64,000 nucleotides of DNA, from assembly GCF_045037415.1 (NCBI RefSeq), contig NZ_CP173440.1; one strand, 5' to 3'. This stretch comes from Escherichia coli. GTDB lineage: Bacteria; Pseudomonadota; Gammaproteobacteria; Enterobacterales; Enterobacteriaceae. Below, in pieces: positions 33,001 through 39,000 of this stretch; the first letter of the stretch is position 1, and each line of letters opens with the position of its first letter. The position numbers were made by a program.

Positions 33001-36000
33001 GATACCCTATTATTCGCTTCACCCGTCTCTGGCGGGGAGTGCCATCGTGATTGCATCGTCCAATAACGGAGCCGTGGAGAATATCTCACTTGAGCTCCCC
33101 GGGATGGAAGCGGTACCGGAGGATGTGTCAGATCGCAGCGATTACTTTGGCGGGCTGGCTACCGTAATACTTAACAGGCCTGCCTGGGGACTTCTGGCGG
33201 CAAGGCTGGGCAATAAAAGTAACAGAGAGCAGTTCGTTAACACACTGTGGTGGGGAAATCTGCAGAAAAGTGAAAAAGGCGATGAAGCACCTCCGGAGAA
33301 GTTTTCACCCGAACGTGGAGAGGGGCTGAAATACCATCTGAATTTACTGCGACCGCCACGGAAAGTCAGAGAGCCTGCACTGACCTGGACTGAGGCTGTC
33401 ACACGTTTTGAACAGGCACAGGCGGTGGAGGAAGCCGAGCGTCAGCAACTGGTCGCCAGTTCAGGGCTAACGCATAAAATTGAGTGGCTCGAAGAACAAC
33501 GAAGAGTGTGGGAAGAAAGGAAGCAAACCGCAACGCTTCAGATTGAGGAATGCCGGAACGCGCTACAGGCGCTCTCTGACAGACTCGCCGCGATGGAAAT
33601 GACCCTGACCCTGTCCAGTGGAGATCGGGACGAACTCGATCAGCGCATCCACCAGCATGAAAAAAATAAACCCGGCCTTCTGGCTAATCTCTTTTCGCTG
33701 GGGAGGATATCGAAGGCATGGTGGGATCGTTATCAACGGCTGACAGACGAATCAGATTCTTTGCGGGCGACGTTGACTCAGCAACGGCAGGAACTGCAGC
33801 TGGCGCAATCAGAAAAACATAATGCAGACAATGAACTCAGGAGCCTTGAGCGTGAGCTCACTCAGGTGATCAGCAACGGTCAGGCGGTCTGTAAAGAGCA
33901 GGAACAGAATAATACCTTGCTGAAGCAGGCTATATCCGATCTGGGAGCCTCCTGGCCGGAGCGGACTGCAACAGATGAACGAAGGGAGTTGTCAGCACCA
34001 TGGCTTCATGAGCGCTGGAGAAAGGCGAGGGAAGATGTGTTTATCGCAGCATTAGACGTTCACCGGGCGTTTATTGAAAATAATCCTGTAAAAATGGCCG
34101 CTAATATAGGGCTTGCAATGGACTGGTTAAAAGGGCGAAAACTGACCGAAAAACAGGCGGGTCTGGCTCTCGACTCCTTATCTCTGGTCGTCCCGGTTAT
34201 ATCAAGCACCTTTGCGTCCATGCCCCGGATGTTCAGGGATACAGGTCAGGAAGCGATAGGCTGGTTGCTGATTGATGAAGCCGGACAGGCACAACCTCAG
34301 CATGCGATTGGGGCTATCTGGAGAGCAAAACGCACGGTTCTGGTAGGTGACCCAAAACAACTGGAGCCGGTCAGCGGTATTCCGTCCACTGTAGAGGGGG
34401 CGCTGGGAAAACATTATAAGATCCCGTCCTGCTGGTGGCCCGGAAAAGTCTCAGCACAGATACTGGCAGACCAGACGATGAACGTTGGCCCCTATCTGCC
34501 CGACCCGGAGTCAGAACAGATTTGGGTGGGCTGTCCGTTACGGGTTCACCGGCGCTGTGATGACCCAATGTTCAGTATCAGTAACCATATTGCCTATGAC
34601 GGGCTCATGGTCCACGGGAAAAAGCCGGGCCTGGTGGATTTCCCTGAAAGCGGATGGCTGGATGTGAAAGGGAGGACATGCGAGGGAAACTGGGTAGTGG
34701 AGGAAGGGGCGGCAGTGGAAAAGTTACTTTTGGCGTTGCGTCACCAGTATTCACTCACACCTGACGACGTGTTTCTGATCTCGCCATTCAAGGACTGCGC
34801 TAAGCAGCTTAACCGGATCGCAAAGAGGCTGGGATTCAGGATGGACAGAACGGGGACCGTACATAAAACACAGGGCAAGGAAGCTACTGTGGTTATCCTC
34901 GTGCTGGGAGGCAACATAAAAAGTCAGGGGGCGAAAGCCTGGGCGGCGGAAAAACCCAATCTTCTGAACGTCGCGGTAAGCAGGGCGAAACAACGCATTT
35001 ATGTCATCGGCGAGCGTGCATTATGGGAGAAGCAACCTTACTTTTCCACGCTGTCCCGGGCACTGGGAAGGCTGGATGTGCCGGTGAGCAACAGCAACCC
35101 GCGTGCGATGTCATATATGGAAGAGTACTTAACCACTGAATGGCGCTGATAAGCGCCAGGTCTGCCAGCTGTCTAATGCGGTATCGACCGCAATACCGGG
35201 TGACTATGACATGCCTGAGGGATGATAATCAGTCGGATATCTGCCTCTAATCTTTTCCTGATATTCCCTGCCGGACCATCAGCGTATGCAGGTGAGGCAG
35301 GGAGGTCTTCCCTCTGGTTTAGCAAGTTACTCATAAACGCTCGCCGACTTGTGAACTGGACACCAAAAGTTGGACCCTCACCAGGGCAACCAGCGAAGGT
35401 GCAGTAAAAGTTACTTTTATCTATAGGATTGCCAGGATTGCTGATGAGAGTTGTTAGCGAGCTTACCTGTTACCTCGGGAGGATTCTGCTTTACACGATC
35501 AAGACCGGTCCATGCATTGAGCTGCATCATTTTGCCGTTACGCTGCAGACGCCGGTTATAACGTTCCATAAATTTGAAAATATAGTTGGCTCTTACGCGA
35601 GGCGTTTTACTGTTGTAGTCAGCAATACCTTCAAACACGTTCCCTTTACGGTCAATAATTTTCCGGTGCAGCCACCATGTCCCAACCCAAAAAGAAGCAC
35701 AGGCGTCATAAGCGAGCTCACGCCAGGTAATTGCGGGGAAGTGGGATTTCACCTCAGCCAGATTTGATGAGTTAATCTGCATTGGGCCAATATCCCATGT
35801 GCCATTGGTGTTAAGGACGAAAGAGCCAATCTTTCCACCTTCGTTATCAAAAAGAGTAAAGACAAGGTCACGGTCAATCCCGAAGAAACGCGCGGCGTCA
35901 GTTAAACATTCGTTTTTAACCGTTTCGGGTACATTTTGGGGCTTCGGTCGATCCGGTGGGGGATTGAATGCTGCATTTGCATTGACGGTTAAAGTGGCGA

Positions 36001-39000
36001 ACAGCACCGCTCCAAAAAATAATCTAGTCATTAACCAGCTCCTCAAAAGTAACTTTTACAGGTTACACGACAACAAAAAATTTTTTTTCCTATACCGGGG
36101 GGAAATGCCTCCTGGTCGGAAAAATATTTTTTTTTGTTTGATACAGTATTTAAGGAGGTAGGACATGATTAAACCCATTGCAGTTGCTCTGATATTGTTA
36201 ACTCCATCGGCCTATGCTGATGTTGATTTACCTGCAGAATTAAAGGACAAAATTGAAGCCGTTGGTATCAACCCCGTCTCTGCAGAGAAATCTCCGGTAA
36301 GTGGTATTTACTCAGTCTTTTCAAAAGAAGGGACGAGTTACGTCACGTCTGACGGTGAATACATCTTCACCGGAAATTTATTCAAAGTGAAAGGGACAGA
36401 AGTGGAAAACACCACGGACGAGTTTATCAGTAAAGGGATGCGATCCTATATTGAGAAGCTCGATACTATCACCTACAAAGCACCAGATGAGAAATATGTC
36501 ATCGGTGTTTTTACTGATATCACCTGTGGCTTTTGCCAGAAACTACATAGCGACCTGCAATCCTATCTGGATAAAGGCATCACTATTAAATTCATCGCAT
36601 ACCCACGTGCCGGGATGAACTCCATGATAGCCCGAAACATGGCATCTGTCTGGTGTGCAGATGACAAACCTGCAGCTTTAACCAGAGCAATGAAAGGGGA
36701 TGGTTTGCCTGAAAAGCAACCGACAAAGACCTGCATGGACTCCATTCAGAGCCAATTTAATGCAGGGAACATGTTCAAACTCTCAGGCACGCCTAGCGGT
36801 TTAAGCCTGAAAGGTGAGCCGATGGTATTTGCGGGGTTACGTGACCCTGACCAGATGCTGAACAGCCTGAAAACGGCCAATCAGAAAAAATAACTCTCCG
36901 GGAGCAACAATGAAGAAATTAATTGCAGTGGCAGCGGTAGTGGTTGTTTCATTTGCCGCCCAATCCAGCGTTTGCGGGCCAGTTGCGTGCAAAGTTACTT
37001 TCGTCGATGTCGACGGCTCGCAAAAGCCGATCATGCTTCTCGATGACAAAGTTTCAACGCGGAAGAGCTCAATGAACCGTGTATTTGATGATGTGTACTC
37101 GCACGGCCGTAAGGTCCAGACTGACCTGAAATCAACCACTCCAGCTGCCGGGCATCCTGATAAATCATCACCCGTGCAAATGAGCAGGGAATTAAGTCCT
37201 GTGGTCATCTACAGCGCATAAAACGGAGTCTCTCATGGGATTAATCAGAACAGTGGTATACGTGGGTATCATTGGAGGCATCTTTGCCTATACACAAACA
37301 AAAGATAGCCTTGAAAATATTTCGGTTCCGGATGCGGAGTTTCCATCGTCAATCTCCAGGAATAACTTTATACAATCGACATGGGTGAACGAGCATTACA
37401 CTTCACTGAAGAATGGCCCGATTGCTGACGGTATATCCAGTATTCTGGATGATGCTCAGGATATCAGGGGGTCTGTCAATAATGTTGTCATGACGGCCGG
37501 TAATGTCGATATCCAGAAGGCTATTCAGGATGCAGTGGATGAACTAGACAGCAATAGCCGTAAATCCAGTAAGTAAAATGGCTCTCAGAACCATCAGATA
37601 CGCCTGTTTAAAATAAAATAACTCAGAGATAAATCATGGAAAATAAACAAAGCACTAAAAAACAAACTCTGATTCACATCGCCTTGGTAGTAGGTGGTTT
37701 TGTTGCTGGTTCGGTAATTTGGGGGAATGGCAGTAATATTATGAACTCAAATGACTCGGCTAATGAGTCTGTCAAAAAACAGCAAATCGAACTGGCAAAT
37801 AGATTCAATGCATTAGCTCAAACAGCGAACCAGGTAAATAAGCCAGCCGGTTTAGTCCTGACTGAGCAGGACAAGGAACTTATTGGAAAAACTGCGGCAC
37901 AGTATTTGATCGAACATCCAGAGAACCTGGTGGAAGCTGGTAAGCGCCTTGAAGCCAACCGAGATGGTGAAAAAACCTCAGACGTTGTGAATACAAAAGA
38001 CGTATTGCTTGAAACAAAATTCACGCCAAACTACGGCCCAGATAACGCAGATGTAGCTGTTATTGAATTTTTCGATTACATGTGTCATTTCTGTCAGCAG
38101 TCCAGTCCCGTGCTTGAAAAGGCGATTGCAGAAAATAAAAATGTTCGGACTTTCTTTAAAGACTTCACCATTTTTGCTGACCGCACACCTATCTCCGGGA
38201 TGGGGGCAAAAATTGGTCTCTACATCTTTAATAAGTACGGGCAGGAAAAATACTACGAGTTCCATAATAAGCTCATGAGTGAAGCGGGTAGGGCAATGAA
38301 GGACAGGAAGGACTATACACCTTCTAATCTGGCGGCCCTGGTCAATGGTTTAGGATATAAAGAAATACTGGATCAGCAAGGTAACTTCTTGCTTACTGTC
38401 GAAATGCGCGATCAGCTTCAGAATGTTCTTGATGCAAATATGATGCTGGCGGATAAACTCAATTATAGCGGCACGCCAGTGTTTATTGTTATGAACATGA
38501 AGAACCCGCAAAACAAAACCACAACCATTATGCCCGGTGCGCCTGATTTTTATCGCTTGCAACAGGCAATTGATAAGGCAAAAGGGAACTAAACATAGCC
38601 CTCCCTTACATAGAAATATAAGCGGAGTGTTTAATTCATTGGCAAAATTCTAGGAGTATGTATGTCGGAGGCTTTCTTGACAGTTTTCGTTGGTGGCGTC
38701 GTTTTTGCTGACGTTGTTAGTGTTTAGCGTCATACGAGTACGTAAATGGAAATGCGTCAAAGAAACACTAGCTATAGTATCTTTTGTATACTTACTTAAC
38801 TTTATAAAAGGTTACCTGAAAATGAACACCAATGTACATCATGTCCAAGAAAATTTTTATATATCATTGCAGGATTGTATAAATAAAGAAGAGAAAACAA
38901 AAAAAACATGCATTGAGTACTGGCGACGTGAAGCTGAGAGGGCGAAGGAAGAAAGCGCAAGACGTAGAGCACTGTCTATAAAGATAATTACCGAAAAAAG

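Follow-up and report, generated by a model that had tools for sequence, protein, structure and literature searches.

In this study, we have analysed a 64,000-nucleotide stretch of an Escherichia coli assembly (GCF_045037415.1, contig NZ_CP173440.1), hereafter the window, and in particular a five-gene module at 35417-38592 that encodes a lytic transglycosylase (LT), a DsbC-family protein, two small proteins and a DsbA-family oxidoreductase of 318 amino acids (aa). We propose that this module is probably an accessory envelope-maturation set of an IncH-type conjugation system, that is, one with MOBH mobilization and F-type mating-pair formation. A transfer-associated periplasmic maturation set had already been suggested by a sequence-only reading of this DNA, and this idea is upheld by the synteny of the module with trhF-trhH-trhG, by the induction of R27 counterparts together with transfer and by the phenotypes of relatives in Rts1 and R27. 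The gene identities, motifs, fold, synteny and lack of redox partners described below come from the present analysis.

At 35000-39000, the sequence agrees at 100% identity with many Klebsiella pneumoniae plasmids that measure 300-420 kb (913 matching records in total in the plasmid collection), and the window is a 100% match to IncHI1B/IncFIB Klebsiella plasmids with a MOBH relaxase and an F-type mating apparatus. One of these, phvKpST395_NDM1_1657 (NZ_CP072809.1), is typed IncFIB/IncHI1B/IncR, MOBH relaxase and MPF_F mating-pair formation. Its RefSeq gene order runs through mobI, mobH and traD to traF, traH and traG, followed by several hypothetical genes and a DEAD/DEAH helicase, then by the minus-strand LT and, on the plus strand, a thioredoxin-fold protein, two hypothetical proteins and a DsbA-family protein, with a HAD-domain protein farther downstream. 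From this match and gene order, we identify the window as the Tra1-side backbone of a pNDM-MAR-type IncHI1B plasmid. All five open reading frames (ORFs) that the sequence-only reading had placed in the module are present at their positions, with the same RefSeq annotation in the 100%-identical records. The LT gene (35417..36046, RefSeq start 36031) lies on the minus strand and is divergent from the other four rather than co-directional with them, and the intergenic region between it and dsbC (36047..36164) is the presumed site of both promoters. The plus-strand genes are dsbC (36165..36893), those of the 103-aa (36910..37221) and 113-aa (37235..37576) proteins, and that of the 318-aa protein (37636..38592). 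As they are separated by 16, 13 and 59 bases and no terminator is predicted between them, their arrangement is consistent with an operon. The description of the set as lying downstream of the helicase is true as a position, and of nothing beyond position.

The same arrangement follows trhG in R27 (IncHI1) and in pSH111_227 (IncHI2), where the HAD and LT genes share one strand, a DsbC-family gene, a 130-aa ORF and a 140-aa ORF occupy the other, and the DsbA-family gene comes after one oppositely oriented gene. Since the module follows trhG in both, syntenic with trhF-trhH-trhG, we regard it, on gene order, as conserved IncH backbone. Identity to the R27 and IncHI2 counterparts is 66-67% for the LT (R27, 66%), 47-49% for DsbC (R27, 49%), 42% for the 318-aa protein, whose R27 counterpart also has CHFC, and 41-45% for the HAD protein; TraF, compared with R27 only, is 60% identical to TrhF. 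The small proteins show no detectable homology to their R27 and IncHI2 counterparts; even so, a signal peptide and a CX4C motif mark the first of the two in each lineage. In R27, the R0130-R0135 set comprises a trbN/bfpH-like muramidase, DsbC, two small ORFs, a lipoprotein and R0135 ('dsbA, outer membrane protein'); gene order, divergent arrangement and the accompanying HAD gene are common to R27 and the window. The window departs from R27 in that traG and the LT gene are separated by a helicase and other ORFs, the HAD gene is now located downstream, no minus-strand lipoprotein gene is present, and the 318-aa protein bears an extra linker of ~40-50 residues after its hydrophobic N-terminus.

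Closer inspection changes the identity of the 318-aa protein. It carries CHFC at residues 150-153 and a GTP loop that is invariant in the alignment, and it scores 47.8 bits against Pfam DSBA (cut-off 25.6). Its best solved relative is Salmonella BcfH (7jve), with an E-value (E) of 6.3e-33 across residues 75-317, in an alignment that begins at residue 18 of the BcfH chain; the next sequence matches are Caulobacter ScsC (7rgv), a Silicibacter 27-kDa protein, Wolbachia DsbA2, Proteus ScsC (4xvw) and Salmonella ScsC (4gxz). An AlphaFold (AF2) monomer model, built from an 11-sequence alignment, has a predicted local distance difference test score (pLDDT) of 78 overall and above 90 in the catalytic domain, with low confidence at residues 1-44 and 59-72, and it places two long helices (77-93 and 95-119) before the catalytic domain. 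A helical stalk at about residues 77-124 is predicted after a variable linker. A Foldseek search of the PDB with this model returned BcfH first (E 2e-16), then PmScsC, CcScsC and WpDsbA2, and the alignments of ~250 columns to full-length BcfH and PmScsC take in the predicted stalk region. E. coli-type DsbA is absent among the best 50 of the 67 Foldseek matches (E <= 0.001) and among the 10 sequence matches. With BcfH and ScsC as the best matches in both sequence and fold, we assign the 318-aa protein, from homology and a predicted structure, to the BcfH/ScsC class and not to classical DsbA. A classical monomeric DsbA was rejected on the ~130 residues that precede the catalytic domain, on the lack of E. 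coli-type DsbA among the matches listed and on the rarity of its partner gene dsbB, present in 86 records of the whole plasmid collection. The earlier label of a membrane-anchored DsbA-like protein stands as far as the DSBA domain and a single N-terminal hydrophobic segment (residues 10-31, anchor or signal) are concerned, and fails with regard to the class.

The relatives of this protein are informative as to what it might do. BcfH, PmScsC, CcScsC and WpDsbA2 are homotrimers assembled via the N-terminal helical stalk, with isomerase or bifunctional isomerase/oxidase activity; DsbB is avoided by ScsC proteins, most of which work with DsbD; and BcfH, encoded within a fimbrial operon, is a foldase for a surface organelle. 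BcfH (7jve), ScsC (4xvw, 7rgv) and Wolbachia DsbA2 (6eez) resemble the 318-aa protein in the DsbA-like catalytic domain, the CxxC motif and the G-T-P loop, and the long N-terminal helical extension of these relatives is predicted in the 318-aa protein as well. Unlike the BcfH and ScsC genes, the gene described here is plasmid-borne beside conjugation genes, and its product has a CHFC active site, no ScsB partner and a hydrophobic N-terminus, possibly an anchor, that would be followed by a long linker modeled with low confidence. Membership of a Scs copper-tolerance system was rejected, as the window holds no DsbD/ScsB-like polytopic protein and the neighbours are the LT gene, dsbC and the two small ORFs.

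The 209-aa LT has an N-terminal signal peptide, read from the sequence, ending ANA|A, and it is probably periplasmic. It matches NCBIfam TrbN (E 1.3e-21) and IagB (E 3e-12) and, by phmmer, the solved type III secretion transglycosylase EtgA (E 3.4e-8). In the EtgA alignment, the catalytic Glu E69 coincides with the Glu of 'WNES', D85 (in WDIG) and the two cysteines C47 and C116 are conserved, and the motifs GPMQIN and DYN align with GIMQIN and AYN. The scores fall below the curated cut-offs, with 20.0 bits against 21.3 for Pfam SLT (1.3 short) and 77.6 against an equivalogue threshold of 246 for NCBIfam TrbN. Because the E-values are nevertheless significant, down to 1.3e-21, we classify it by homology as a diverged member of the specialised family-1 lytic transglycosylases of the TrbN/P19/IagB/EtgA type. 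Like TrbN (RP4), P19 (R1), IagB/IpgF, EtgA and Rts1 Orf248, it is a small periplasmic family-1 LT encoded beside a secretion system, with the catalytic Glu and the GxMQ and YN motifs in common; it differs from the class by its score 1.3 bits under the Pfam SLT cut-off, and its activity is predicted.

In the case of the DsbC-family protein, DsbC_N (45.2 bits, cut-off 25) and Thioredoxin_2 (51 bits, cut-off 27) are both matched, the N-terminal dimerisation domain is present and the active site CGFC occupies residues 121-124. The alignment to Salmonella DsbC (PDB 4i5q) runs end to end (E 1.6e-41) and includes a second Cys pair (C164/C190) and the GTP loop. The score against NCBIfam DsbC PRK10877 (182.7 bits) lies under the equivalogue cut-off of 215, which argues for a diverged plasmid paralogue of chromosomal DsbC rather than the housekeeping gene, an assignment made from these family scores. 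Chromosomal DsbC (E. coli 1eej, Salmonella 4i5q) has the dimerisation domain, CG[FY]C and the second structural Cys pair in common with the plasmid paralogue. Other plasmid DsbC types are distinct from it, namely HtdT (E 0.006), Rts1 Orf212 (23% identity) and IncA/C DsbP (E 6.5e-10). The DsbP type was rejected for this gene because the protein is far closer to chromosomal DsbC (E 1.6e-41).

The two small ORFs match no family in Pfam or NCBIfam, yet both are preceded by Shine-Dalgarno sequences and have conserved homologues of the same length. The 103-aa protein has a signal peptide and invariant C22/C27 (CX4C) at the mature N-terminus, and the relatives that the homologue search found, with identities down to 60%, are confined to plasmids of this type from Klebsiella and Raoultella; its AF2 model (pLDDT 46) is unusable. 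The 130-aa protein in the same position in R27 and IncHI2 resembles it in signal peptide and CX4C. Homology between the two is not claimed here, as hhalign gave a probability of 2.8% and aligned only these two features. The 113-aa protein has no cysteine, and its homologues, down to 50% identity in the same search, are confined to this plasmid lineage. Its most conserved part is residues 1-25, an almost invariant N-terminal transmembrane helix with GIIGG, which points to a working membrane anchor more than to a signal that is cleaved off. We therefore describe it as a small bitopic membrane protein that looks anchored and not exported, so that of the two small exported proteins proposed earlier only the first retains that description.

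Expression of the module might be regulated as in R27. A scan for sigma-70 promoters gave 7 sites, against 7.7 in shuffled sequence, with none in the 118-bp divergent region, and a perfect TAAGGAGGT ribosome-binding site stands before dsbC. An element T8-(G/C)CTATA-(CC/GG)GGGGG is common to the window (36047-36164) and R27 (L003 23709-23855), which are otherwise of low similarity there, and is a candidate regulatory site. The shared T-run, CTATA and G-run and the lack of a good sigma-70 promoter would be compatible with activator-dependent or H-NS-controlled expression, by analogy with R27.

The evidence that ties the module to DNA transfer, co-induction as well as phenotypes, comes from the literature on homologues. 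In published transcriptomics of R27, expression of R0129, R0130 (trbN-like) and R0135 (labelled dsbA, outer membrane protein) goes up when transfer is permitted, both at 25 C and in an htdA derepressed mutant (PMC7366339); from ORF numbering and annotation labels, R0130 would be the transglycosylase and R0135 the DsbA-family gene. In the case of Rts1, deletion of orf206 lowers transfer >100-fold and deletion of orf248 (SLT) ~4000-fold, and both genes are needed even in wild-type E. coli (PMC10838148). The same report, with reference to earlier work, gives a 10,000-fold drop on loss of R27 dsbC and a 10-fold drop on loss of F trbB, in dsbC-null hosts only (PMC10838148). Rts1 Orf206 is an N-terminally anchored DsbA-family protein with 21% identity to the 318-aa protein (E 4e-7). 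In an IncF plasmid, the gene immediately following traI codes for a closer homologue of the 318-aa protein. Among the 3204 plasmid records that hold a homologue, 2455 are typed as conjugative.

A number of observations weigh against a role in transfer or against parts of it. The SXT transglycosylase homologue is dispensable for transfer (PMC10838148), so that the contribution of any one gene may be small where the host is wild type; moreover, the function of R0135 was stated as unknown in 2024 (PMC10838148). The transfer phenotypes all come from relatives (R27, F, Rts1 and SXT) rather than from the IncHI1B lineage, to which they would apply by analogy, and it is our presumption that the 'dsbC of R27' of the literature is the gene at the position of the module. 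The two small proteins have no assignable role. As for the class of the 318-aa protein, it scores 17.3 bits against Pfam ScsC_N, under the cut-off of 25.8; the homologue in the IncF plasmid passes at 40.6 bits.

Further CxxC proteins are encoded on the same backbone. TraF/TrhF (22320..23357, plus strand), a thioredoxin-fold pilus-assembly protein, matches TIGR02740 'TraF-like' at 281.6 bits (cut-off 232.25) and has CAYC at residues 180-183, where R27 TrhF has CQFC. R27 HtdT, annotated as a protein-disulfide isomerase, has homologues at ~52% identity in Klebsiella IncHI1B plasmids. Tra2 was not found in two flanking stretches of NZ_CP072809.1, and the Tra2 proteins were taken from pPMK1-NDM, which shares backbone proteins; there, the HtdT homologue lies between traB and traV, has CQDC and a second Cys pair, and is only remotely related to the DsbC of the window (E 0.006). 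With this protein in Tra2, the backbone has four CxxC proteins, and not the three thiol-disulfide oxidoreductases counted before.

Putative clients can be recognised by their cysteine content. TraH/TrhH (23347..24756, plus strand), one of the two proteins, with TraG, that the sequence-only reading had named for cysteine counts, is a probable client with 6 Cys, including CADC. TraG/TrhG (24731..28696, plus strand), the polytopic mating-pair protein encoded directly before the module in R27 and IncHI2, is Cys-poor, with 5 in 1321 aa. The Cys-rich proteins are encoded outside the window, namely TraN with 32 Cys (3.0% of residues) and TrhU with 16 (4.6%), and TraV and TrhW have 3 and 2. The main clients would thus be TraN and TrhU rather than TraG. 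In F, TraN, TraU and TraH have 22, 11 and 6 Cys and are the proposed clients of TrbB (PMC11315126). The F TrbB concept resembles that proposed for the module, with plasmid periplasmic CxxC proteins that back host DsbC for Cys-rich Tra proteins and depend on host DsbD; F TrbB is, however, a monomeric minimal thioredoxin, whereas the extra enzymes of the window are a full DsbC and a BcfH/ScsC-type protein.

The pathway had been called self-sufficient, and this claim does not survive. The three polytopic membrane ORFs of the window are a DUF4400 protein, TraG and a FeoB-like protein, and there is no DsbB-, DsbD- or ScsB-like protein among them; the FeoB-like ORF (62056-63723, 555 aa, polytopic and Cys-rich) was considered and rejected as a DsbD-like partner. 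Such partners are also rare on plasmids, since tblastn searches of the whole plasmid collection, which a very divergent reductase would escape, found E. coli DsbB in 86 records and DsbD with near-full coverage in 126, against 913 for the module. As the related enzymes TrbB, DsbC and, for the most part, ScsC need the DsbD of the host, and no DsbB, DsbD or ScsB partner was found, the plasmid enzymes must be recycled by host DsbD, DsbB or small-molecule oxidants. Most of the other DsbD matches were to a short N-terminal fragment (residues 48-139), the only DsbD sequence in ~2000 plasmids and probably the remnant that travels with blaNDM. A dsbB paralogue was found in 64 Klebsiella plasmid records and, among the matches listed, is 66% identical to E. 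coli DsbB.

Taken together, these data allow us to propose a model. The transglycosylase would open the peptidoglycan locally, allowing the transfer apparatus to span the cell wall. The DsbC paralogue would probably act as a dimeric, and the BcfH/ScsC-like enzyme as a trimeric, isomerase or isomerase/oxidase, and both would work beside TrhF (CAYC) and the Tra2 HtdT homologue, forming and correcting disulfides in Cys-rich exported transfer proteins, chiefly TraN, TrhU and TraH; the LT and the 103-aa protein, each with a conserved Cys pair, may also be clients. Recycling would be carried out by host DsbD, and any oxidase activity would be sustained by DsbB or an ambient oxidant. The module would in this way add capacity and client specificity and make transfer less reliant on host DsbC, and would not be autonomous. 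We infer the client identity, the oligomeric state and the direction of catalysis.

Other functions for the oxidoreductases have to be weighed against this model. The 318-aa protein, and perhaps the DsbC paralogue, might be cargo of benefit to the host, conferring ScsC-like copper or oxidative-stress tolerance unrelated to conjugation. Large IncH plasmids often bear metal-resistance cargo, and the 318-aa protein counts copper-tolerance ScsC proteins among its closest characterised relatives and shows, in its N-terminal helix, a weak match to Pfam ScsC_N. However, no scsA, scsB or scsD lies nearby, the gene occupies one constant backbone site next to the transfer genes in three IncH lineages with an identity of only ~42%, the R27 orthologue is induced together with tra genes, an F-type plasmid has a homologue as the last gene of its tra operon, and the best match, BcfH, is a surface-organelle foldase and not a copper protein, so that we consider a cargo role improbable. 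That same parallel with BcfH, encoded in a fimbrial operon and serving the Bcf fimbriae, would fit oxidoreductases that mainly serve other plasmid surface proteins, such as the very large Ig-like (RSP-type) proteins that promote mating aggregates. On the IncHI1B backbone, genes for several Ig-like proteins adjoin Tra2, and the cysteines of a 1413-aa one look closely paired by eye. Nevertheless, cysteines are far denser in TraN (3.0%) and TrhU (4.6%) than in this protein, with about a dozen by eye in 1413 aa, and the module adjoins trhF/H/G and not the Ig-like genes. A main role of this kind is unlikely in our estimation; the Ig-like proteins and the secretion machine are not mutually exclusive as clients, and both roles can coexist.

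The genes might also be redundant passengers, with nothing measurable to contribute in hosts with intact DsbA, DsbC and transglycosylases, and kept by linkage. The R27 dsbC and F trbB phenotypes, limited to dsbC-null hosts, and the dispensable SXT transglycosylase (PMC10838148) would agree with this possibility. On the other hand, three enzymes with intact catalytic motifs across IncHI1, IncHI2 and IncHI1B at 42-67% identity indicate purifying selection, and Rts1 requires orf206 and orf248 also when its host is wild-type E. coli (PMC10838148); we find little reason to expect that the genes are passengers. An accessory envelope-maturation set for conjugation is therefore the reading that we retain. 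More tentatively, and with the doubt that befits a speculative extension, the BcfH/ScsC-class stalked oxidoreductases could be a widespread and unrecognised class of dedicated foldases of F-type conjugation, anchored in the inner membrane, with TraN/TraU-type clients and with the two small co-operonic proteins as lineage-specific partners, which may serve, for example, as a membrane tether or redox relay. The 318-aa protein, R27 R0135, the post-traI gene of some IncF plasmids and, more distantly, Rts1 Orf206 may be members.

Several features of the surrounding backbone deserve description. The HAD_SAK_2 gene (40408..41016, plus strand; Pfam E 3.9e-23), which encodes a phosphatase-like protein with a predicted N-terminal transmembrane segment in the window, travels with the LT/Dsb module in IncHI1, IncHI2 and IncHI1B, although position and strand vary; in the compared stretches it lies at L003 22530-23141 and L002 5160-5678, and it adjoins the LT gene in R27 and IncHI2. 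Between it and the 318-aa gene, at 38690-40411, are two low-GC ORFs (~38% GC) with no family match, which are probably a later insertion. The interval between traG and the LT gene, occupied by the HAD gene alone in R27 and IncHI2, holds at 28700-35150 a 1113-aa SF1 helicase (AAA_11/AAA_12) and several small ORFs, and we interpret it from this comparison as a lineage-specific insertion; the helicase gene, possibly a defence gene, encodes a protein that weakly matches the anti-phage helicases Hhe, ProA and PLuB. Upstream of traF, the ORF at 20811-21395 encodes two CxxC pairs (CLVC and CPTC), is zinc-ribbon-like with no Pfam match, and occupies the position of R27 hypothetical genes upstream of trhF, a region to which, by ORF number, the R27 regulators trhR/trhY also map. 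Genes for Ig-like proteins like R27 RSP lie near Tra2 at L007 28798-33039 and in L006 (NZ_CP072809.1 345-362 kb). At the far end of the window (49000-64000), a cluster of second-copy housekeeping genes adjoins a Fur-family repressor and comprises hemB, dihydroorotase, an M14 carboxypeptidase, a short ThrRS-like gene, carbonate dehydratase, folE2, dksA, a GTP-binding protein (possibly COG0523-type), cysS, a pyridine-nucleotide disulfide oxidoreductase and the FeoB-like transporter; it looks like a plasmid-borne island of zinc-limitation (Zur-type) paralogues.

The module itself is already known, as the same set is present in R27 and is annotated in hundreds of identical records. Plasmid-encoded helpers of the DsbC/TrbB type for Cys-rich Tra proteins have been described since 2005, and plasmid disulfide isomerases together with a specialised transglycosylase that serve an F-type type IV secretion system are an established concept. 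What this work adds is the reclassification of the IncH 'DsbA family' gene as BcfH/ScsC-like, the dependence on host DsbD/DsbB, and a list of likely clients in TraN, TrhU and TraH. From a practical point of view, the matching Klebsiella plasmids carry the NDM carbapenemase and hypervirulence genes, so that any factor supporting their transfer has practical relevance, and Dsb enzymes are being pursued as anti-virulence targets.

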